Numbered from the stretch's first letter, positions 7,590 through 60,650 are shown. The stretch: 64,000 bases of DNA from an uncultured Bdellovibrionales bacterium (GCA_964556685.1 CAZKWX010000003.1:78-64077); one strand, 5' to 3'. The notes: generated by a model from the sequence alone, not told the origin. Made by a program: numbers and translations.

Positions 7590-8396
7590 ATGGGGGAAAA
7601 GAAATCTGCTAATAAGAAGCAGGAAGAAGATCGAGCTGAAAAAATCCGATCACTTCAGGAAATGATTGCCACGGCAGAAAGAACCATCACTTCTGCCAAG
7701 GCCATGCTATCTCAAGTTCAAATCGAGGAGAAAGCATCTGGCAACGGCGCTGACTTTGGTTCAGTTGATGATTCCGATTTTGATGGTGATGGTCAAATCA
7801 TTCACGGAACTTTTGATGGACAAATTATGATCGGTGAAGATGGAAAACAATATCCGGTTCCTGCTAATTATGCTTCAAAATCAAAACTAGTCGAAGGAGA
7901 CATGCTCAAACTCACCATCACGGGTGAAGGAAATTTTGTTTATAAACAAATTGGTCCGGCTGAGCGAAAATATTTGATTGGCATTGCCAATCAAGACGAA
8001 AGAGGAAACTTTTTTGTTAAAACGGAAGATCGAAGTTATAAGGTTCTTTTGGCTGCTGCCACCTATTTCAAGATTGAAGCAGGTGACGAAGTGACGGTTA
8101 TTGTTCCCCGAGAGGGTGAAGTCACCTGGGGAGCAATTGAAAATATTGTCCGCAAAGCGTCCGATGTTCTCAGCTCTCCGGACATCAATTTGCAGTCAGA
8201 GCCAATGCAACCAAAGCTGACTGAAGAGAGCGCCAATGGAAAACCAACCGCTATTGAGAAACTAGAAAAAGAAATTGAGGACGAACGAAAGAGCGCTAAG
8301 AAAAAAGATGACATTCTCGATGAGTGGACTCCTGATATTGATCAAATGAAGAAAGAGGCCAAACAGCCAGCTGGAGCTGAAGAGGATGTTAGTTAA
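7590..8396 (+). CDS. Hypothetical acidic protein with N-terminal coiled coil
   Basis: 268 aa ORF; TTGCAT-17-TATAAT promoter-like sequence at ~7457-7490 upstream. Confidence 0.5.
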   Translation: MGEKKSANKKQEEDRAEKIRSLQEMIATAERTITSAKAMLSQVQIEEKASGNGADFGSVDDSDFDGDGQIIHGTFDGQIMIGEDGKQYPVPANYASKSKLVEGDMLKLTITGEGNFVYKQIGPAERKYLIGIANQDERGNFFVKTEDRSYKVLLAAATYFKIEAGDEVTVIVPREGEVTWGAIENIVRKASDVLSSPDINLQSEPMQPKLTEESANGKPTAIEKLEKEIEDERKSAKKKDDILDEWTPDIDQMKKEAKQPAGAEEDVS

Positions 8397-8472: not shown

Positions 8473-8931
8473 ATGCAAGCAATTCTGTCTCGCTATCCTG
8501 CTATTGGACAATTTCTTCGTTTCGGCGTCATTGGCGCAATGAATACCGGGGTTGATCTTGTCATCCTCAACATTCTAATGTTCATATCTGGTTATACTGA
8601 TGGCACGCCCTATTCGATTTTCAAAACCATTTCATTCGCTGCTGCTGCAACCTTTAGCTACTTCATGAACAAGCGCTGGGCTTTCAGAGACAAGTCCAAG
8701 AATCAGGAAGTCAAGAAGTTTTCTCAATTTTTTGTCATTTCCATCATTGGCGCCTTGATCAATGTTACTGTCGCTTCTTTGGTGGTTAATTTTGCTAAAC
8801 CGGCGCTTGATAGCACTTTAATTATTCCTCTTTCTGCTCAAATTTGGGGCAGCGTTGGTGCTCTTTGTGGAACAGCCGTAGGTCTTGCCTGGAACTTCCT
8901 GGGATACAAGTTTATTGTTTTTAAAAAATAG
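8473..8931 (+). CDS. GtrA family membrane protein (polysaccharide/glycolipid synthesis accessory)
   Basis: 152 aa, four TM helices, N-terminal RFGVIGAMNTGVDLVILNIL matches the GtrA-like family. Confidence 0.7.
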   Translation: MQAILSRYPAIGQFLRFGVIGAMNTGVDLVILNILMFISGYTDGTPYSIFKTISFAAAATFSYFMNKRWAFRDKSKNQEVKKFSQFFVISIIGALINVTVASLVVNFAKPALDSTLIIPLSAQIWGSVGALCGTAVGLAWNFLGYKFIVFKK

Positions 8932-9149
8932 AGTCTCTCATGGAGTACTCTATAGAATACTCTCTCGAACATTTGTCTATTCAAATACGATTGCATTTGC
9001 GATCGTATTTCATTATTTAAATGGCTCGAAATTATAGTATATATTTTAGTATATACTATAGTATATACCATTTTTTACTCTAAAAATCTTTACATTTGCC
9101 ATTCTCTATCTATACTAAATACCAGATACCTTTGAATAGTAAAATTTAT

Positions 9150-9310
9150 TTACTCTTCCCCCTCTTTTGGAAAGATGTTGAATTCATTGGTTTTGAATTC
9201 AGGGGGGAATTAAGTGAATTGGCCGGCGTCTACTGCCATTTGAATTAACCCCTCTTGAGAATTACTCATCCGCAATTCTCCGCCTTGCCATAAGGGGAGA
9301 GAATGGGTAT
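9150..9310. repeat. G-tract palindromic dispersed repeat (copy A, MITE/REP-like)
   Basis: Shares blocks AAGAGGGGTTA, CCGGCCAATTCACTTAA, CCCCCTGAATTCA..TGAATTCA and AAGAGGGGGAA with 23245-23375 (opposite orientation). Confidence 0.55.
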
Positions 9311-9345
9311 TTTATAATTCAAGGATTCACTAAAAATTACATACA

Positions 9346-11052
9346 ATGTCTTCATCCCTTTATCAAAAATATCGACCAAAAACTTTTTCCGAGATCAGCG
9401 GACAGAGCTTTACTATTCGCACGCTGACCAACGCCATCAAAAATGATCACGTTGGCCATGCCTATTTGCTAACTGGTCCTCGTGGAACCGGAAAAACTAC
9501 CATTGCTCGAGTTTTTGCCAAATCCATCAATTGCCTGGATCTGCAAAAACCCAAAACCAGCAAACAAGCTAACCAAAACACCAGTATTGAGCCGTGTAAC
9601 CAATGTGATAATTGCAAACTGATCCTTGAGGATAAGGCCTTAGATCTAATCGAAATTGATGCTGCTTCTCACACTGGAGTGGACAACATTCGCCAGCTCA
9701 AAGAAGCGGTTCCTCTTCCTCCGTCGGCTTTGAATTATAAAGTCTATATTATTGATGAAGTTCACATGCTTTCGATTGGCGCTTTCAATGCCTTACTTAA
9801 AACTTTGGAAGAACCTCCTGCTCATGCCGTTTTCATTTTGGCTACCACTGAACTTCACAAAGTTCCCGAGACTATCATTTCTCGCTGTCAACGATTTGAC
9901 ATCACTCCTCTCTCTCAAGATCAAATCACTGGGCGCTTGGCTCAGTTGGCCAAAAAAGAAAGGGTTAAAATTGAAAAAGAAGCGCTTGAAACGATTGCTT
10001 TGGAAGCCGAGGGTGGGATGCGCGATGCTGAATCATTGCTGAGTCAAATTATTGCCCTAGAGGACAAGAATATAACTGCCAAAGAAGTTCAGCAAATCCT
10101 AGGCACTTCTTCGCGACGTTTGGTGACTGAGTTTGTTTCGATGATAGCCAGCGGTCAAACTAAAGAGGCCCTAACTAAAATCGACCAAATTCAAAATGAA
10201 GGACTAAATTTGAAGAATTTCAATAAAAATGTTCTGCAATACTTGCGTCATCTGATTATTATTAAGACCAATCCAGATTCAGCCAAGGAAATTATCGGTA
10301 GTATTTCTCAAGATCAGTTCAAGGAAGCTAAGGAAATTGCAGAAAAATTGGTCTTGGAAGATATTTTGTTTTTGACTGAGCTTTTTCAAAAAAGTCTTGA
10401 AGGTTTCAAGGATACTGCTATTCCTCAATTACCTTTAGAATTAGCGGTAGTGGAATATCATGTCAGCAAAAATCAGACAGTTGGTGATCCGGAAGATATT
10501 TCCAAAAATAATCCGGAAAATAAAGAGCCGACGAAACGAGAAAATATTAAATCGCCTGCTACAAAGAAGGGTACCCCACTTCGTCTTGCTGAGCAGGACT
10601 CCGAGGAGCAGGCAGAAAAAGGTATCTTAAAAGATACAGATAATAAAAAAGAGAATAAAAAGGTCATAGAGAAATCAAATAAAAAAAGCAAAGCCAGCAA
10701 TCGAACAGTTACTCTAGAAGAAATTCTAGAAAAATGGTCGGATATTCTCACGGAAGTTAAGCCTCACAACCATTCGATTCATGCTTTTTTGAAAAACTGC
10801 ACGCCTTGTGGAATTGAAGATGATTCACTTTATATAAAAACAAAATATGCCTTTTATAAGGATAAATTAAGTGAAAATAATAATCGGTTGACAGTCCAGA
10901 AGGTCGTTGCTAAAATTCTCGGAGTGTCTTTGAAGGTGGTTTTTTTGACTGAAGCGGAGTGCAAAGATAGAAAATTTGAAAGTTCTAGTGAAAACAAGAA
11001 TGTATTACATGATGCAATGCAAATGATGGGAGGAAGGATTGTGAAGAATTGA
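9346..11052 (+). CDS. dnaX: DNA polymerase III subunit gamma/tau
   Basis: 568 aa; Walker A GPRGTGKTT, zinc module CNQCDNC, AAA+ clamp-loader architecture; stop TGA. Confidence 0.9.
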   Translation: MSSSLYQKYRPKTFSEISGQSFTIRTLTNAIKNDHVGHAYLLTGPRGTGKTTIARVFAKSINCLDLQKPKTSKQANQNTSIEPCNQCDNCKLILEDKALDLIEIDAASHTGVDNIRQLKEAVPLPPSALNYKVYIIDEVHMLSIGAFNALLKTLEEPPAHAVFILATTELHKVPETIISRCQRFDITPLSQDQITGRLAQLAKKERVKIEKEALETIALEAEGGMRDAESLLSQIIALEDKNITAKEVQQILGTSSRRLVTEFVSMIASGQTKEALTKIDQIQNEGLNLKNFNKNVLQYLRHLIIIKTNPDSAKEIIGSISQDQFKEAKEIAEKLVLEDILFLTELFQKSLEGFKDTAIPQLPLELAVVEYHVSKNQTVGDPEDISKNNPENKEPTKRENIKSPATKKGTPLRLAEQDSEEQAEKGILKDTDNKKENKKVIEKSNKKSKASNRTVTLEEILEKWSDILTEVKPHNHSIHAFLKNCTPCGIEDDSLYIKTKYAFYKDKLSENNNRLTVQKVVAKILGVSLKVVFLTEAECKDRKFESSSENKNVLHDAMQMMGGRIVKN

Positions 11053-11159: not shown

Positions 11160-11837
11160 ATGAAAGAGAAAGAAAGAAAACGGGCAATCAAACTCAGAAA
11201 ACTAGGACTTTCCTATAATGAAATCTTGGAAAGAGTTTCCGTCTCCAAATCAACTCTATCTGTCTGGTTGAGAGATGTTGGGCTTGCTAAAAGTCAGAAA
11301 CAAAGATTAACAAAGAAGAGAAAACTTGCCCAGCTAAAAGCACAGCGAGTCTGTAGGGAAAGAAGGATAGAAATTACCAAGGAAATAAGAGAAAAAGCTT
11401 CCAAAGAAATTGGAGAGATATCGCAAAGGAATTTATGGCTAGTTGGAATTTCTCTTTATTGGGCCGAAGGGAACAAACAAAAAGAATCTAACGTATCAGA
11501 AAGAGTGGGATTAGGAAATTCTGATCCGGACATCATAAGGATATTTATTCTTTGGCTAACTAAAATATGTAAAATTAAAAGAAGTGATATTGATGTTCGC
11601 TTAGCAATTCATGAAACAGCTAATGAAAAAAGAGCGAAAAAGTATTGGTCTAAAATATCCAAGGTTCCAATTCCAGAATTTAAAAAAACACTGATAAAAA
11701 GGCATAACCCTAAAACTAATAGAAAATATAATAAGAATTATAATGGCCTTCTGATCGTATCTGTTAAGAAAAGTACGAATTTTAATAGGAAAATTAAAGG
11801 TTGGATTGATGGTATTATTGATAACACTGGGGTGTAG
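11160..11837 (+). CDS. HTH-domain protein with LAGLIDADG-like motif (putative homing-endonuclease-like)
   Basis: 225 aa; N-terminal sigma-70 region-4-like HTH (LGLSYNEILERVSVSKSTLSVWLRD); LWLVGISLYWAEGNK resembles LYLAGFVDGDGS of single-motif LAGLIDADG enzymes; stop codon overlaps tRNA-Gln. Confidence 0.4.
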   Translation: MKEKERKRAIKLRKLGLSYNEILERVSVSKSTLSVWLRDVGLAKSQKQRLTKKRKLAQLKAQRVCRERRIEITKEIREKASKEIGEISQRNLWLVGISLYWAEGNKQKESNVSERVGLGNSDPDIIRIFILWLTKICKIKRSDIDVRLAIHETANEKRAKKYWSKISKVPIPEFKKTLIKRHNPKTNRKYNKNYNGLLIVSVKKSTNFNRKIKGWIDGIIDNTGV

Positions 11838-11899
11838 CCAAGCGGTAAGGCAGTAGCTTTTGGAGCTATGATTCGTAGGTTCGAATCCTACCACCCCAG
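11828..11899 (+). tRNA. tRNA-Gln (anticodon UUG)
   Basis: Cloverleaf UGGGGUG/CACCCCA acceptor with U1-A72, D arm GCCAAGCGGUAAGGC, anticodon loop UUUUGGA, T arm GUAGGUUCGAAUCCUAC, discriminator G; near-identical layout to E. coli tRNA-Gln. Confidence 0.85.
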
Positions 11900-12032
11900 C
11901 ATAGTAGGACAAGAAGAGGCAGAAACGCCTCTTTTTGCTTTATTTAAAGCAAGAAAGATCGGTTCGAGGGCTGGCATTCTGATCTTTAGATCTCCAGCAT
12001 CTTCCATGAGCCAATTAAACGGTTCTCTTAGC

Positions 12033-12518: not shown

Positions 12519-12680
12519 TATCGGTTCTTGTTCTTTTTGCTTCCATTATTTTATTTCCCATGGAAAGTGTTGATTCCAGTATGTTGTTTTAATGAACTTC
12601 CCCTCCTCAACCCACATCCAATATGTGGACTGGGGAAGGTGGAGATCCAAGCGCGATGGCGAGGACCTCCGGACATTATA

Positions 12681-13037
12681 TTATGAGAAAAAACTCGCCG
12701 CATAGACTTCCTGAGGGCGCCCTGCTTTTTCCCATTTTTCTTTCATCAGGGTCTTAATCCTCCCCTTGGCGTTTTTGATCTTCTCCGGATTTTCTGATCT
12801 TAAAAATCTCAATTTTATAAGGAGATCTTTTTCGCCTCTCGAGACAAGACTACTATCGCCTGTCCCCGCACAGTTTGCGCAAATTGCAATCTGCACAGGA
12901 AAATCTTCAGGGCAATAATCAATGTCGATATCCCTGAAATAACCCGGTTGCACTGCCAAGGGCCCAGTAGTGCACCAATCACAAGTTTTTTGATGTCTTC
13001 TCATCTTATTCTCCTTTCTTAAAAATTTTTCAGTCAA
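12681..13037 (-). CDS. Hypothetical Cys-rich protein (possible metal-binding)
   Basis: 118 aa; CDWC...CPEDF...CANCAG cysteine cluster. Confidence 0.45.
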   Translation of the reverse strand: MTEKFLRKENKMRRHQKTCDWCTTGPLAVQPGYFRDIDIDYCPEDFPVQIAICANCAGTGDSSLVSRGEKDLLIKLRFLRSENPEKIKNAKGRIKTLMKEKWEKAGRPQEVYAASFFS

Positions 13038-13563
13038 AATATCCCCTCACTATGAGGAGATATCAGGTTGAAATATATAAACAATATACATGCTGAAAAC
13101 TCCTCGTGTTGCCTGGTTGCAACGAAAGAGATTTTTTTGAGTATCATTTTCACAAAAATGCTCGCTTCTTGGTGGAATCGATGTGAAGAATTGAAACCAA
13201 AATACTCTATTTCAATGTACTTATTGTTAATTTTAGAGATAAATATCTTTTCCCCTCCTCAACATGGTTATTTGGTGATTGTGGAGTCTAACACATTAAG
13301 AAATGCTTGCCAAGAGCTTCGAAGTCGAGTCGTAAATTGTATAAAAATAGCTGAAATAAAGTGTTCTCATGTTTTTTTTAGTTTATTTTCTGCGACCGAA
13401 ACGCTTCAAAAGTGAGCTTTCAAAAATTTCTTTGAAAATCCTTGAATATACACTCTGAAAAAGCTTTGGATCGACGTGGCTAGCCCTATTTTACAATTCC
13501 GACTTAATACCCTAGAATAAAATCACCAGCTGCTCCACGTTTCTAACTAAATAACAATATTTA

Positions 13564-19929: not shown

Positions 19930-20131
19930 TCTTAATCCATAATTTTTTTTAGTAAGAGGATAAAACGAAAATCCCCCTTAGTCCCCCTTTTTCTAAGGGG
20001 GAAATATTAATTGCCACTTAGCTTTATTTTCGCTAAAATATCAACTTTCCAAATAAAAAAGCCGTTGGCCTGCGCTTAGAGCAAGTCTCCGGCTTTTTAA
20101 ATTTCGCTGATTTCTTTTCAAAATGAGGGAT

Positions 20132-21371: not shown

Positions 21372-21758
21372 TTTTTTCCTCCTTTTGTAAATAACTTTGA
21401 TTGTTTATTATCAAGGTTACATTAATAGCATTTATTTTCCGAAAATTCAAGCTGCAAAAAAATACCCATTAAAATGGCCATTTAAATGGGTATTTTTTCA
21501 TCCCATCTTAATCTTCCCCTTATTAATGGGAGGAACATCATCAACCACCCCCATCCTTCGCTAAAGCTTCAGAGGGCAGGCCTACGCCCCTCCCTGCCTA
21601 CTGGCAGGCAGGCTTTCTAAGGAGGGGAAAGATGCAAATCCCCCTGAAAAATGTGATCCATTTCGTTCATCTATGTTTTTCTTCTCCCTCTTTCAAAAGG
21701 GGAACAAGAACAACAGGTTGCGTTTGAATGGTTATGTCTTTATGATGAATTTGAAAAT

Positions 21759-22891: not shown

Positions 22892-23152
22892 ATGAACAAT
22901 AAAGAAAAACTTAAGAAACATATCGAGAATTCAAATCTAGAGCTGGAAGAAAAAGCTCTTTGGTATCGTTATCTCGAAATTGGAAAAGATCCTGATATCG
23001 ATGCAATTCTAGGAGCTGTTGAAAAGAATCCCGAAGATCTGAAATTTTTAACCAAGAACTTCAAGAACAAAATAGAGGCTTTTGAATCTGGGAGCGAAGA
23101 GGATTGGAAAAGAATTGCCCAAAATGATATGAAATATGTTAGTGAGGAATAA
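22892..23152 (+). CDS. Hypothetical small protein
   Basis: 86 aa ORF followed by terminator. Confidence 0.4.
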   Translation: MNNKEKLKKHIENSNLELEEKALWYRYLEIGKDPDIDAILGAVEKNPEDLKFLTKNFKNKIEAFESGSEEDWKRIAQNDMKYVSEE

Positions 23153-23170
23153 GAATGAACTAAAAAACAA

Positions 23171-23195
23171 GAGCCGTCTGAGGACGGTTTTTGTT
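23171..23195 (+). terminator. Rho-independent terminator (CCGTC-TGAG-GACGG + T5)
   Basis: GC stem followed by TTTTTGTT after 22892..23152. Confidence 0.55.
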
Positions 23196-23244
23196 CCTTT
23201 ATTGATGTTAAATAAACAAAACGTAAAACATTTTTCTCTCTTCT

Positions 23245-23375
23245 TAGTGTAAGGGGAGATTAAGAGGGGTTAGTTTTGATTGCAGAAGAGACCGGCCAAT
23301 TCACTTAACTCCCCCTGAATTCATTACTAATGAATTCAGCCCCCTCTTACCCTAAGAGGGGGAACAAATAAGATC
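23245..23375. repeat. G-tract palindromic dispersed repeat (copy B)
   Basis: Homologous to 9150-9310; contains perfect palindromes GAATTCATTA-c-TAATGAATTC and CCCCCTCTTA-ccc-TAAGAGGGGG. Confidence 0.55.
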
Positions 23376-23430
23376 TACGGCTCATAGGTATCCAAATTAA
23401 TTTCATGAAACTAAGTGAATAGCTGTACAC

Positions 23431-24189
23431 ATGGATGATATCCACAATAACAAAAAGGATGTGAAAAAAATGAATCAGCCTAGCAAAAAGCCCGGAAACA
23501 AAAAAGCTTTCCTTTGGGTGGTGGTAGCAGTGGGAATTTTTATGCTGCTGCTTTTGCTTTCTGGAGGAGTGTCATTTTGGTTCTGGTTGGGACTGGCTTT
23601 GTGGATCGGATATATCCTATTCGTGAAAATCAAATATGTTGGAGGGGATTACGCTTTCAGCAAAGTTTTGGGAATGGGAATTGGCGTGTTCTTTCTGAGT
23701 TTTATTTTTTTAGCCTTTACACCTTCTGAGCAGAATGGCACACCTTCAAATAACGTGAATAGTTTTAGCAATGAAGAAGAGTCCGAAGATGATTTTCAAG
23801 AAATTGAACTAGCCATTGAGCCAACTAAAGTAGAAATTTTTCTGATGAAATTAAAAAATGACACGAATCTGCAATTTTCCGAAATTGAAGATGCTAGTTT
23901 GCTCTGGAAAGGCTCTAATGTGAATATGATATTGCAAGAAGTTGAGAGTTTTCAATTGAAAGACGCTGGTGAAGAAGACGTGAAAAAGATTAATACTTTT
24001 TTCACCGATTTGGGATGGGATCACGGAACTGTTGGCTTCACTTACACTCCTATTGAAGATGACAAGGAAACCGGTTATGCTTCAACCTCGATGGAACCTG
24101 CGTTCAAAGGAATCATGTGTGTGATTGATCAAAATGATCCAAAAGCTGTGGTGATTAAGTGCGGGCTTAGTCCAGAAGAAAATGAATGA
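23431..24189 (+). CDS. Hypothetical membrane protein (two N-terminal TM helices)
   Basis: 252 aa ORF; acidic C-terminal domain. Confidence 0.5.
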   Translation: MDDIHNNKKDVKKMNQPSKKPGNKKAFLWVVVAVGIFMLLLLLSGGVSFWFWLGLALWIGYILFVKIKYVGGDYAFSKVLGMGIGVFFLSFIFLAFTPSEQNGTPSNNVNSFSNEEESEDDFQEIELAIEPTKVEIFLMKLKNDTNLQFSEIEDASLLWKGSNVNMILQEVESFQLKDAGEEDVKKINTFFTDLGWDHGTVGFTYTPIEDDKETGYASTSMEPAFKGIMCVIDQNDPKAVVIKCGLSPEENE

Positions 24190-33624: not shown

Positions 33625-33668
33625 GGCCAAAAAATAGTATATACTATGGTATATACTATTTTTTGGCC
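33625..33668. repeat. Perfect 19-bp inverted repeat GGCCAAAAAATAGTATATA-CTATGG-TATATACTATTTTTTGGCC
   Basis: Perfect palindrome upstream of the 32646..33587 gene; core AGTATATACTAT(A/G)GTATATAC recurs at 9044-9066. Confidence 0.6.
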
Positions 33669-33852: not shown

Positions 33853-33906
33853 TGGAGCCGAAGACCGGGCTTGAACCGATAACCTACCGCTTACAAGGCG
33901 GTTGCC
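33853..33906 (-). pseudogene. 3' two-thirds fragment of a second tRNA-Thr(UGU) (anticodon arm, T arm, acceptor 3' strand, encoded CCA)
   Basis: GCAACCGCCTTGTAAGCGGTAGGTTATCGGTTCAAGCCCGGTCTTCGGCTCCA; no matching 5' acceptor strand nearby; lies 17 nt downstream of the intact tRNA-Thr(UGU). Confidence 0.5.
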
Positions 33907-33923
33907 CCGCCTGCCTATGCCTG

Positions 33924-48959: not shown

Positions 48960-49260
48960 TATAAAAAATCGCCCCAATATCTAAGGACGACTCATGGCCG
49001 TGGTACCACCTTGGTTTAGCTAGTAGTTAGTAGTTGGTAGTTTGTAGAAAAGGTATCCTAAAAACTATCAACTAAAAACTAAAAACTCTTGCTTACAGCT
49101 ATTACGGGCTTACCCGACGAGTTCTATTCTCCCGAGTACTCGAGATTTCTTCTCGCAGCTCCGAAGTGATTGCTCCATCATTGCTTTTGTAATTGTACTT
49201 CTTAATAATTAAATATTTTTCGTGATTTGTAAAGTCTTCTTGGCGTTGCTAAGAGATAAC
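48960..49260 (-). promoter_or_regulatory. T-box leader (tRNA-sensing riboswitch) with intrinsic terminator ahead of ileS
   Basis: Minus-strand AACCAAGGUGGUACCACGG (T-box consensus AAnnnGGGUGGnACCGCG) at 48998-49016, followed by terminator UCGUCC..GGGGCGA + U6 (48964-48990), upstream of the ileS ATG. Confidence 0.7.
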
Positions 49261-57858: not shown

Positions 57859-57950
57859 CAAATTACAAATGTCAAATCAAGTTCAAAATCCAAATTCATT
57901 AAGGCATTCTGGCTTTGTTATTGATTTGTCATTTGATATTTGAAATTTGG
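57859..57950. repeat. AT-rich hairpin repeat element (CAAATCAA/TTGATTTGTCATTTGATATTTGA family), copy after infB
   Basis: Identical 32-mer GCTTTGTTATTGATTTGTCATTTGATATTTGA also at 60604-60635; upstream arms ~75% identical; relatives at 53880-54000, 55935-56030, 7270-7330. Confidence 0.55.
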
Positions 57951-60554: not shown

Positions 60555-60650
60555 CAAAATCCCAATGCCAAACCAAGCTCAAATTCCAAATTAATTCTTT
60601 CATGCTTTGTTATTGATTTGTCATTTGATATTTGATATTTATCATTTTAA
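60555..60650. repeat. AT-rich hairpin repeat element, copy after nfo
   Basis: Same family as 57859-57950 (identical 32-mer at 60604-60635). Confidence 0.55.

Follow-up and report, generated by a model that had tools for sequence, protein, structure and literature searches.

A modular palindromic element, possibly a REP/ERIC-like repeat, at dnaX and a second locus of a Moranbacteria-like genome

Several classes of small palindromic element have been described from the spacers between bacterial genes. The repetitive extragenic palindromic (REP) sequences with the bacterial interspersed mosaic elements (BIMEs), and the enterobacterial repetitive intergenic consensus (ERIC) sequences, are imperfect palindromes, of which the REP units are only 20–40 bp long and are repeated hundreds of times. 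Miniature inverted-repeat transposable elements (MITEs), such as Correia/NEMIS and RUP, are also small and non-coding and may even lie between a promoter and its gene. The RNA motif whalefall-1 is an orphan known solely from whale-fall metagenomes, which its authors judged to be a non-cis-regulatory RNA (PMC2864571). The subject of the present analysis is a non-coding palindromic unit of around 175–195 bp that occurs as two diverged copies in a 64,000-nt stretch of DNA (GCA_964556685.1, CAZKWX010000003.1:78-64077, catalogued under an uncultured Bdellovibrionales bacterium), which as a whole is referred to here as the window. One copy, A, lies just upstream of dnaX and the other, B, some 14 kb away. 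There is about an even chance (roughly 0.5) that A and B are diverged copies of a lineage-specific, REP/ERIC-like modular palindromic repeat and not a classical MITE.

Copy A occupies 9125-9318 on the plus strand and copy B, the better preserved of the two, 23217-23392 on the minus strand, these strands being taken as the sense of the element. The copies were delimited by blastn, nhmmer and alignment, and the sequence of B recurs in two contigs of the Logan assemblies (L002 and L003). They are 76% identical across 135 nt (blastn, E 2e-22), a figure matched by the mean column identity of their MAFFT alignment (76%), and are reverse complements of one another, being detected by a repeat finder as the inverted repeats I1 (54 nt at 83%) and I16 (28 nt at 89%). 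Homology begins at GATACC, at 9125 in A and 23392 in B, and runs through two segments, 9125-9256 against 23392-23262 and 9276 to about 9318 against 23261 to about 23217. These are separated by a 19-nt stretch found in copy A only (9257-9275), after which homology resumes across the second hairpin. Within the window the 17-mer CCGGCCAATTCACTTAA is confined to A and B with three mismatches allowed (0.2 expected). Both copies are intergenic, A lying between a GtrA-like gene (8473-8931) and dnaX (9346-11052) and B between open reading frames (ORFs) at 22892-23152 and 23431-24189. They are oppositely oriented with respect to their neighbouring genes and their flanks have no similarity. A first-pass annotation had described four blocks common to the two long copies, in a given order and in intergenic DNA, all of which the alignment bears out. 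The homology that it reported is real, but its extent is wider than the 9150-9310 and 23245-23375 given there, beginning earlier than those boundaries, and the inverted orientation had been missed.

The unit is modular. Along the sense strand it consists of H1, a pyrimidine-run/purine-run hairpin (CCCCCTCTTA/TAAGAGGGGG), H2, a GAATTC hairpin, R2, a purine tract (GGGGGAGTTAAG), an invariant 17-nt core, Y2, a pyrimidine tract (TAACCCCTC) that pairs back onto R2, and H4, a second pyrimidine/purine hairpin (TCTCCCCTTA-N3-TAAGAAGAGA). H1 and H4 are 23-nt extragenic palindromes set within a repeated unit of about 180 nt. In copy B, where all the features are on the minus strand, H1 (23340-23362, CCCCCTCTTA-N3-TAAGAGGGGG, repeat I3) has a perfect 10-bp stem and H2 (23315-23339, CTGAATTCATTA-N-TAATGAATTCAG, repeat I2) a perfect 12-bp stem. 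They are followed by R2 with the invariant 17-mer (23292-23315), R2 being the equivalent of arm A in a phage palindrome described below, by Y2 (CTAACCCCTCTTAA, 23260-23273), which pairs with R2, and by H4 (23237-23259, TCTCCCCTTA-CAC-TAAGAAGAGA). The stem of H4 includes two C.A mismatches that are G.U pairs on the plus strand, and this hairpin pairs better on the strand opposite to the sense. The inner 27-nt inverted arms of B (74%) merely reflect the similarity between H1 and H4.

Copy A has the same layout on the plus strand in what looks like a decayed form. A Y1 tract (CCCCCTCTT) and a degenerate H1 lie at 9155-9176, where the purine arm has been lost and a 5-bp TCTTT/AAAGA stem remains. 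H2 (9179-9201, TGAATTCA-N7-TGAATTCA, repeat I4) is reduced to 8 bp, and R2 (GGGGGGAATTAAG, 9202-9226) overlaps the invariant 17-mer TTAAGTGAATTGGCCGG (9210-9226). Y2 (TTAACCCCTCTT, 9245-9256) pairs with R2 in minimum free energy folds and H4 (TCTCCGCCTT...AAGGGGAGAGA) lies at 9277-9302. Relative to B, copy A has therefore lost H1 without compensation, has a shorter H2 and carries the 19-nt indel. Both strands fold more stably than shuffled sequences, with z values of -2.6 to -4.7. The R2:Y2 helix shows one clear compensatory change, AAUU:AAUU in A against AGUU:AACU in B (columns 76/112), and with two sequences strand and structure are beyond the reach of covariation.

No long ORF is common to the two copies, and gene callers placed no ORF over the element in contig L067. 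A speculative mini-ORF with a GTG start, read from the sequence, does follow R2 in both copies. It has 9 codons in A (9214-9243, plus strand, GTG...TGA, MNWPASTAI) and 14 in B (23260-23304, minus strand, GTG...TAA, MNWPVSSAIKTNPS), conservation between them is limited to the first 4 codons and other frames look equally conserved.

The setting of copy A can be compared with that in related genomes. Homologs of the neighbouring DnaX bear Patescibacteria or Moranbacteria names, the nearest non-identical protein being 61% identical, and by these homologies the genome is that of a Moranbacteria-like member of the Patescibacteria. Three relatives retain the gene order FtsK, cation ATPase, LigD_N, hypothetical protein, GtrA and dnaX. 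Their GtrA–dnaX spacers measure 178, 128 and 131 nt, compared with 415 nt here, and are made up of a terminator, a TTGACT-17-TATAMT promoter and a leader of 50–60 nt. A dnaX promoter, TTTACA-16-TATACT, is predicted in the window at 9089-9116 on the plus strand (10/12 in a consensus scan), and the relatives have TTGACT-17-TATACT or TATAAT at the equivalent position. Copy A starts 8–9 nt past the -10 box, at the predicted +1 of this promoter, and is predicted to form most of a 222-nt dnaX leader. The element has no homolog in 58 kb of the relatives' DNA by nhmmer, and none by Rfam. It had been suggested that relatives be checked for empty sites. The element is indeed absent from the syntenic spacer in all three, which, with relatives as distant as this, speaks for lineage specificity only. 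Near copy B no promoter-like site is found on either strand. A bidirectional intrinsic terminator (23166-23195) abuts this copy from outside the repeat. It ends the gene at 22892-23152, and transcription of B along the minus strand would stop there too. The possibility that a signal recognition particle RNA, a 6S RNA or some other known RNA is encoded upstream of dnaX was rejected, as Rfam gave no match at A, whether at the gathering score or with E allowed up to 10.

Two other features of the dnaX neighbourhood are worth recording. A perfect 12-bp palindrome, TAGTATATACTA, is present in tandem just upstream of the dnaX promoter (9029-9071) and again near tRNA-Thr (33629-33659; repeats D10, D20 and I6), and looks like the operator of a dimeric regulator. 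On the other side of dnaX, the interval leading to the tRNA (11160-11837; tRNA-Gln 11828-11900) holds a different small, possibly selfish gene in each genome, the product being an HTH_23 protein in the window and, in the relatives (L061, L063), a GIY-YIG or 23S-rRNA-IVP protein, which suggests an insertion hot spot downstream of dnaX.

Contig ends in public short-read assemblies of the same organism point to a further copy. Among the Logan contigs listed, all those carrying dnaX start at 9252, including one of 22.5 kb that continues unbroken through copy B, and the listed contig carrying GtrA ends at 9254. In the k = 31 graphs of Logan, the contig to the left of an exact repeat ends 30 nt into it and the contig to its right starts 30 nt before its end. 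The geometry at copy A thus delimits a 57-nt segment, 9225-9281 on the plus strand, that would be repeated exactly elsewhere in the same metagenomes with different flanks. A positive control is provided by the 32-nt repeat at 57912-57943 and 60604-60635, which is the only exact inter-locus repeat of at least 31 nt in the window and which yields a contig boundary at 60606, the repeat end minus 29. From the break geometry and this control we infer a third copy, which would be of the A subtype because the 57-nt segment includes the 19-nt stretch 9257-9275 that is missing from B. Exact scans with the 17-mer gave 55 matches in GTDB, one in the JGI metagenomes and four in IMG/VR, all of them chance matches in coding DNA at about the chance rate, and hence the source lineage is not represented in these sets. 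Other reproducible Logan contig ends lie at 175, 17544, 31733 and 60606. Of these, 175 adjoins the palindrome ATCCCGGACTTGATCCGGGAT and 31733 falls within a terminator hairpin, and further short exact repeats located beyond the window may account for both.

The short hairpins that had been listed as relatives, at 19968, 21500, 12598 and 13247, are not homologous to the element. A hidden Markov model (HMM) built from both copies found no other significant site in the window, the best being 19936-20004 (E 0.12) and 21679-21702 (E 28), and the short hairpins were rejected as family members by nhmmer and blastn, by a strict hairpin census and by an HMM of the phage motif (19973-20001, E 2.4). Strict hairpins of at least 7 bp with C4/G4 arms number three in the 64 kb (19982, 23340 and 59801). 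Nor are runs of G or C out of character for this genome, as had been claimed, since the window has a GC content of 39.7% and contains 28 runs of G5+ or C5+ where a first-order Markov model predicts 46 ± 6.7; such runs are clustered only in A, B and 19973-20001. The family is therefore the two long copies, and the short hairpins are unrelated structures, some of them terminator-like. The idea of a dispersed REP-like family fits the evidence in the form of two diverged inverted copies with unrelated flanks, absent from the syntenic spacer of the three relatives, with a probable third copy and modules in phages, and falls in respect of the membership as listed.

Two of the short sites have an interest of their own. 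Those at 12598 and 13250 have merely a 14-nt exact direct repeat in common (TTCCCCTCCTCAAC, or GTTGAGGAGGGGAA on the minus strand; 12598-12611 and 13250-13263), which flanks a small minus-strand gene (12681-13004) and could be chance at such a length, or a shared regulatory or att-like site. The spacer of divergent genes at 21455-21730 contains a perfect bidirectional terminator (21457-21498) as well as a GC-rich structured stretch, in which GGCAGG/CCTGCC helices occur and for which z is -3.5 on one strand and -4.3 on the other. It has no Rfam match, is unrelated to the A/B repeat and may be an unannotated small RNA.

The marks of a classical MITE do not appear at either copy, and the first-pass use of that label is not borne out. 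In a comparison of the left end with the reverse-complemented right end, A reaches 10 (shuffles 8.0 ± 1.6, p 0.16) and B 8 (shuffles 7.0 ± 1.3, p 0.30), so that terminal inverted repeats are not significant. A check for target-site duplications found none at any plausible boundary of either copy, the flanks being ...AAATACCA|GATACC...GGATTC|ACTAAA in A and ...AATTAATTT|GGATACC...|AAAAACCG in B. No transposase or other informative Pfam domain is present in the 10 neighbouring proteins, and a literature search on the motif strings and on MITEs in Patescibacteria found nothing relevant. The suggestion that the hairpins act as transcription terminators fares no better, as H1, H2 and H4 all lack a T-run on their 3' side and the terminator-like sites at 8983-9010 and 23166-23195 lie outside the repeat.

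A REP/ERIC-like repeat is favoured because the element is lineage-specific, has at least two and probably three or more copies, is independent of orientation, is decaying in A and has none of the hallmarks of a cut-and-paste MITE; the decay of A is what would be expected of a non-essential insert. Such a repeat would spread or duplicate as DNA without terminal inverted repeats or target duplications, and hairpin-dependent single-strand transposition of the RAYT (REP-associated tyrosine transposase) or IS200 type, or recombination, are candidate mechanisms. At least one more copy would be expected in the genome. Wherever the repeat lies in a transcribed spacer it would be co-transcribed and fold into very stable stem-loops. 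Copy A would have landed at +1 of the dnaX promoter and would now constitute most of the dnaX leader, in which purine tracts resembling Shine-Dalgarno sequences may be locked by pyrimidine tracts resembling anti-Shine-Dalgarno sequences. Any effect of A on dnaX would probably be exerted on messenger RNA stability or translation and not on termination. Copy B would sit between a terminator and the next gene with no evident promoter.

Modules of the element are also found in phages. A pattern for H1 with 20 fixed bases matches 29 IMG/VR contigs, each of them one to four times, at 33 unique sites altogether, where about 0.3 sites would be expected by chance if the collection is taken as roughly 58 Gb (an estimate). 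TAAC[GT]CCCC lies just upstream of 17 of the 33 and GGGG[AC]GTTA just downstream of 20. The sites thereby outline a nested palindrome of about 55 nt, TAACGCCCCC-nn-CCCCCTCTTA-NNN-TAAGAGGGGG-n(2-12)-GGGGGAGTTA(TG), at loci L077-L114, which appears to be undescribed and gave no Rfam match. It is asymmetric, all 13 of the complete elements pairing TAACG... with ...GGGGGAGTTA (or the reverse complement). The elements sit between genes (for example L079 at 581, 3388, 4101 and 10919, and L100 at 7636-7940), and some contigs hold 2–4 copies in either orientation. A scan with the arms only recovered a variant group with a compensatory change in the inner stem, CCCGTC:GACGGG to CCCTTC:GAAGGG. The annotated contigs are those of tailed phages, with terminase, gp29/DUF935 portal, capsid-protease and tape-measure genes; L079 is Mu-like, and its portal has homologs in metagenome-assembled genomes of Syntrophales, Nitrospirota and Spirochaetota. 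A preferred orientation of the phage element with respect to downstream genes was considered and rejected, long ORFs starting after arm A in 10/21 cases and after arm C in 7/16.

An HMM of 21 oriented phage elements matches the minus strand of copy B with E 7.3e-10 (33.9 bits), while the other strand scores 20.6 bits on H1 alone, 13 bits less. In L100 two tandem units produce a stretch collinear with copy B, namely H1, GGGGGAGTTA, about 50 nt, TAACCCCTC and H4, and L097 has the same modules in a circularly permuted order; a hairpin like H4, CCTCCCCTTA-N3-TAAGGGGAGG, is present in both loci. Judged against the phage arrangement, with TAAC[GT]CCCCC 5' of H1 and GGGGG[AC]GTTA within 2–12 nt on its 3' side, copy B has H2 inserted between H1 and GGGGGAGTTA, which lie 25 nt from each other, has no 5' phage arm and carries TAACCCCTC downstream instead. 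Copy A has GGGGGGAATTA and no intact H1. Three patterns for spaced layouts like that of the repeat returned 0, 0 and 1 matches in viral contigs, the single match being a chance one in coding DNA. No viral contig has the exact layout of the repeat, and the whole element gave no BLASTN match to phage and plasmid sequences. The additional modules constitute independent evidence of a real relationship, be it descent, transfer or shared constraint.

A resemblance to whalefall-1 is seen in copy B. At gathering thresholds nothing in Rfam matches the element, but the H1, H2 and purine-tail portion of B (23306-23365, minus strand) is a sub-threshold match to RF01762, with 33.6 bits against a gathering score of 37 and an E of 5.6e-5 for the whole window; copy A gives no match at E up to 10. 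The 16 whalefall-1 seeds have the same layout of hairpin, hairpin and purine tail and occur as inverted pairs on the same contigs. When the tail AG(G/A)G.GAGGAC is sought, B has H1, H2 and CAGGGGGAGUUA, H1 is degenerate in A and the similarity to the seeds is not significant. Comparison of the element with the seeds and their flanks by blastn produced nothing significant (best E 0.3), and extended homology to whale-fall flanks such as GCAAUUCAAAAUCUA was rejected on the same ground. The relation is therefore one of resemblance and not of membership. In the published seeds (PMC2864571, supplementary files 53 and 175) two subtypes can be seen, arranged as divergent inverted pairs about 35–50 nt apart on the same contigs, and the flanks hold further C-run/G-run hairpins, which points to a larger repeated palindromic unit with whalefall-1 as one of its parts.

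The chief rival to a REP/ERIC-like repeat, unlikely as it is, is that the copies are functional structured RNAs related to whalefall-1. B would be a minus-strand small RNA of about 230 nt ending at the 23195-23166 terminator, A a cis-acting dnaX leader, and the C-rich and G-rich tracts switchable Shine-Dalgarno/anti-Shine-Dalgarno pairings. The RF01762 match of B is the only one with E below 0.01 that is not to a tRNA, riboswitch or T-box, and the architecture together with linker and tail nucleotides agrees with the 16 seed sequences. A is in the sense orientation directly after a good promoter, B on its minus strand runs into a strong terminator, R2:Y2 has its compensatory pair and the phage-motif HMM favours the same strand. 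Against this, B is below the gathering threshold and A does not match at all, blastn to the whale-fall seeds and flanks is not significant, and the phage-motif HMM finds nothing in the whale-fall sequences. No promoter-like site exists upstream of B on either strand, H1 of A has been lost uncompensated, H4 of B would have two G.U pairs on the opposite strand in place of its two C.A mismatches, covariation cannot be established from two sequences, and relatives have no matches. A broader proposal would unite the element, the phage palindromes and whalefall-1 in one widespread, horizontally mobile class of hairpin modules that mimic Shine-Dalgarno and anti-Shine-Dalgarno sequences. Such modules would be intergenic in phages and in bacteria as distant as Patescibacteria and would serve as translational insulators or ribosome decoys at the RNA level, with mini-ORFs at arm A; this is quite improbable.

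The alternatives at the level of DNA or of coding are less attractive. The dyads H1 and H2 might be operators for a dimeric regulator, or the copies might be sites for a site-specific recombinase able to invert the 14-kb segment between them, for which B offers perfect 10- and 12-bp dyads. Also in favour, each TGAATTCA arm is palindromic in its own right, the two copies face in opposite directions at a distance of 14 kb, hardly any stem pair on either strand is other than Watson-Crick and orientation relative to genes is not conserved. Such a role at the DNA level is highly improbable, as L002, L003 and the 22.5-kb contig cross B in the arrangement of the window, a short exact repeat accounts for the break at A, neither a recombinase nor a regulator is encoded next to the copies, an operator would be far smaller than a four-helix unit of about 180 bp and the H1 dyad is destroyed in A; inversion of the A–B segment, tried as a candidate, left no sign in the contigs. 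Only a very slight chance is given to a degenerate mini-gene cassette of phage origin, in which H1, the ribosome-binding-like GGGGGAGTTAA and a GTG-started ORF of 9–14 codons (MNWP...) ending near TAACCCCTC and H4 would be a leader peptide or the remnant of a collapsed gene. GTG follows GGGGGAGTTAA by 1–2 nt in both copies, ATG directly follows phage arm A in 10/21 sites, often opening very short ORFs, and the tandem units of L100 have the same layout (H1, arm, about 50 nt, arm, H4). The ORF ends differ, however (9 against 14 codons), a second frame and the opposite strand yield equally 'conserved' peptides, the gene starts sampled in the window are, as read from the sequence, without obvious Shine-Dalgarno sequences, and long ORFs show no excess after arm A (10/21) over arm C (7/16). 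That the copies are ordinary intrinsic terminators or look-alike chance hairpins is scarcely credible. The stems are GC-rich and lie in intergenic DNA, and some viral H1 matches (L083, L091 and L093) are plain terminators with an A-run, a hairpin and a T-run, yet collinear similarity over 135 nt at E 2e-22 is incompatible with chance, the hairpins of the element lack T-runs, terminators being confined to 8983-9010 and 23166-23195, and copy A stands between a promoter and its gene.

The repeat interpretation has its own difficulties. Only two copies are seen directly, and the exact 17-mer scans of GTDB, JGI metagenomes and IMG/VR found chance matches alone. There are no terminal inverted repeats, target-site duplications or cognate transposase, so that mobility is only inferred, and empty sites in relatives with 61% DnaX identity show lineage specificity and not recent insertion. 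The order of modules differs from that in phages, where the pyrimidine arm lies 5' of H1, whereas here it lies downstream of R2, and because H1 was the query its own match is circular and the flanking modules alone are independent. Moreover, a functional RNA would account just as well for the sub-threshold whalefall-1 match and the single compensatory R2:Y2 pair.

The genomes of Patescibacteria are very small and are regarded as poor in repetitive or selfish DNA, a view to which a modular palindromic repeat within the leader of dnaX, a gene essential for replication, would be a concrete exception. The sharing of modules with tailed phages, of which at least one is Mu-like and seems to infect unrelated anaerobes, would imply either horizontal spread of a tiny non-coding element across very distant hosts or an undescribed, strongly constrained RNA or DNA signal. 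The element is also a lead for the study of whalefall-1, an orphan RNA motif of 2010 known from environmental sequence alone, which would gain its first biological context if the three did form one class. Should there be no further copies, the element would be merely a two-copy, lineage-specific duplication of modest interest; a broad family linking Patescibacteria, tailed phages and whalefall-1 would raise that interest.

Elsewhere in the window, about 500 nt at its start (1-510) are without an ORF and contain several GC-rich palindromes (ATCCCGCGAAGCGGGAT at 102-118 and ATCCCGGACTTGATCCGGGAT at 176-196), and may represent another class of palindromic repeat or a non-coding RNA. An AT-rich repeat family (TTTGTCATTTGATATTTGA and similar; D2, D4, D5, I2-I5, I10 and I14) occupies spacers about 2–2.7 kb apart between 53880 and 60660 and includes one 32-nt exact repeat. 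A sub-threshold match to a T-box leader lies on the minus strand at 48980-49190 (51 bits against a gathering score of 93), and a partial tRNA-like duplicate (33856-33914, minus strand, 26.6 bits, repeat D13) lies beside tRNA-Thr.

Set against the described systems, the element is like the MITEs of the Correia/NEMIS and RUP kind in being small and non-coding, in occupying spacers that include one between a promoter and its gene, in occurring in both orientations and in being absent from the corresponding site of relatives. Unlike them, its terminal inverted repeats are not significant, a target-site duplication is not visible and a parent insertion sequence is not known. With whalefall-1 it shares a pyrimidine/purine hairpin, a linker of 2–4 nt (C.GA), a second hairpin of 9–12 bp and then UCAGGG.GAG, and the seeds of that motif are likewise multi-copy, known only from environmental sequence and paired on the same contigs in inverted orientation (Weinberg et al. 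2010, PMC2864571). It departs from whalefall-1 in that B is below the gathering score, A is without a match and the element reaches about 110 nt past the 56-nt model. The phage palindrome has an identical H1 stem, GGGGGAGTTA downstream on the same strand, TAACCCCTC with an H4-like hairpin, an intergenic location and multiple copies. Its unit is only about 55 nt, whereas here the 25-nt H2 splits H1 from the purine arm, and the host range of L079, the sole contig probed, points away from Patescibacteria. From REP and ERIC sequences the element differs in having no sequence relationship with them and, compared with the 20–40 bp of REP, in a larger and more modular unit of about 180 bp; with two copies seen and a third probable it also falls far short of hundreds, and its host is a small-genome Patescibacterium, a group for which the literature search turned up no account of repeats of this kind. 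It is nevertheless REP/BIME and ERIC sequences that it resembles in general character, being non-coding, extragenic and imperfectly palindromic, present in either orientation, predicted to be co-transcribed and free of terminal inverted repeats and target duplications. The conserved asymmetry of its phage relatives, with a fixed mismatch between the arms, is likewise as found in the REP types.

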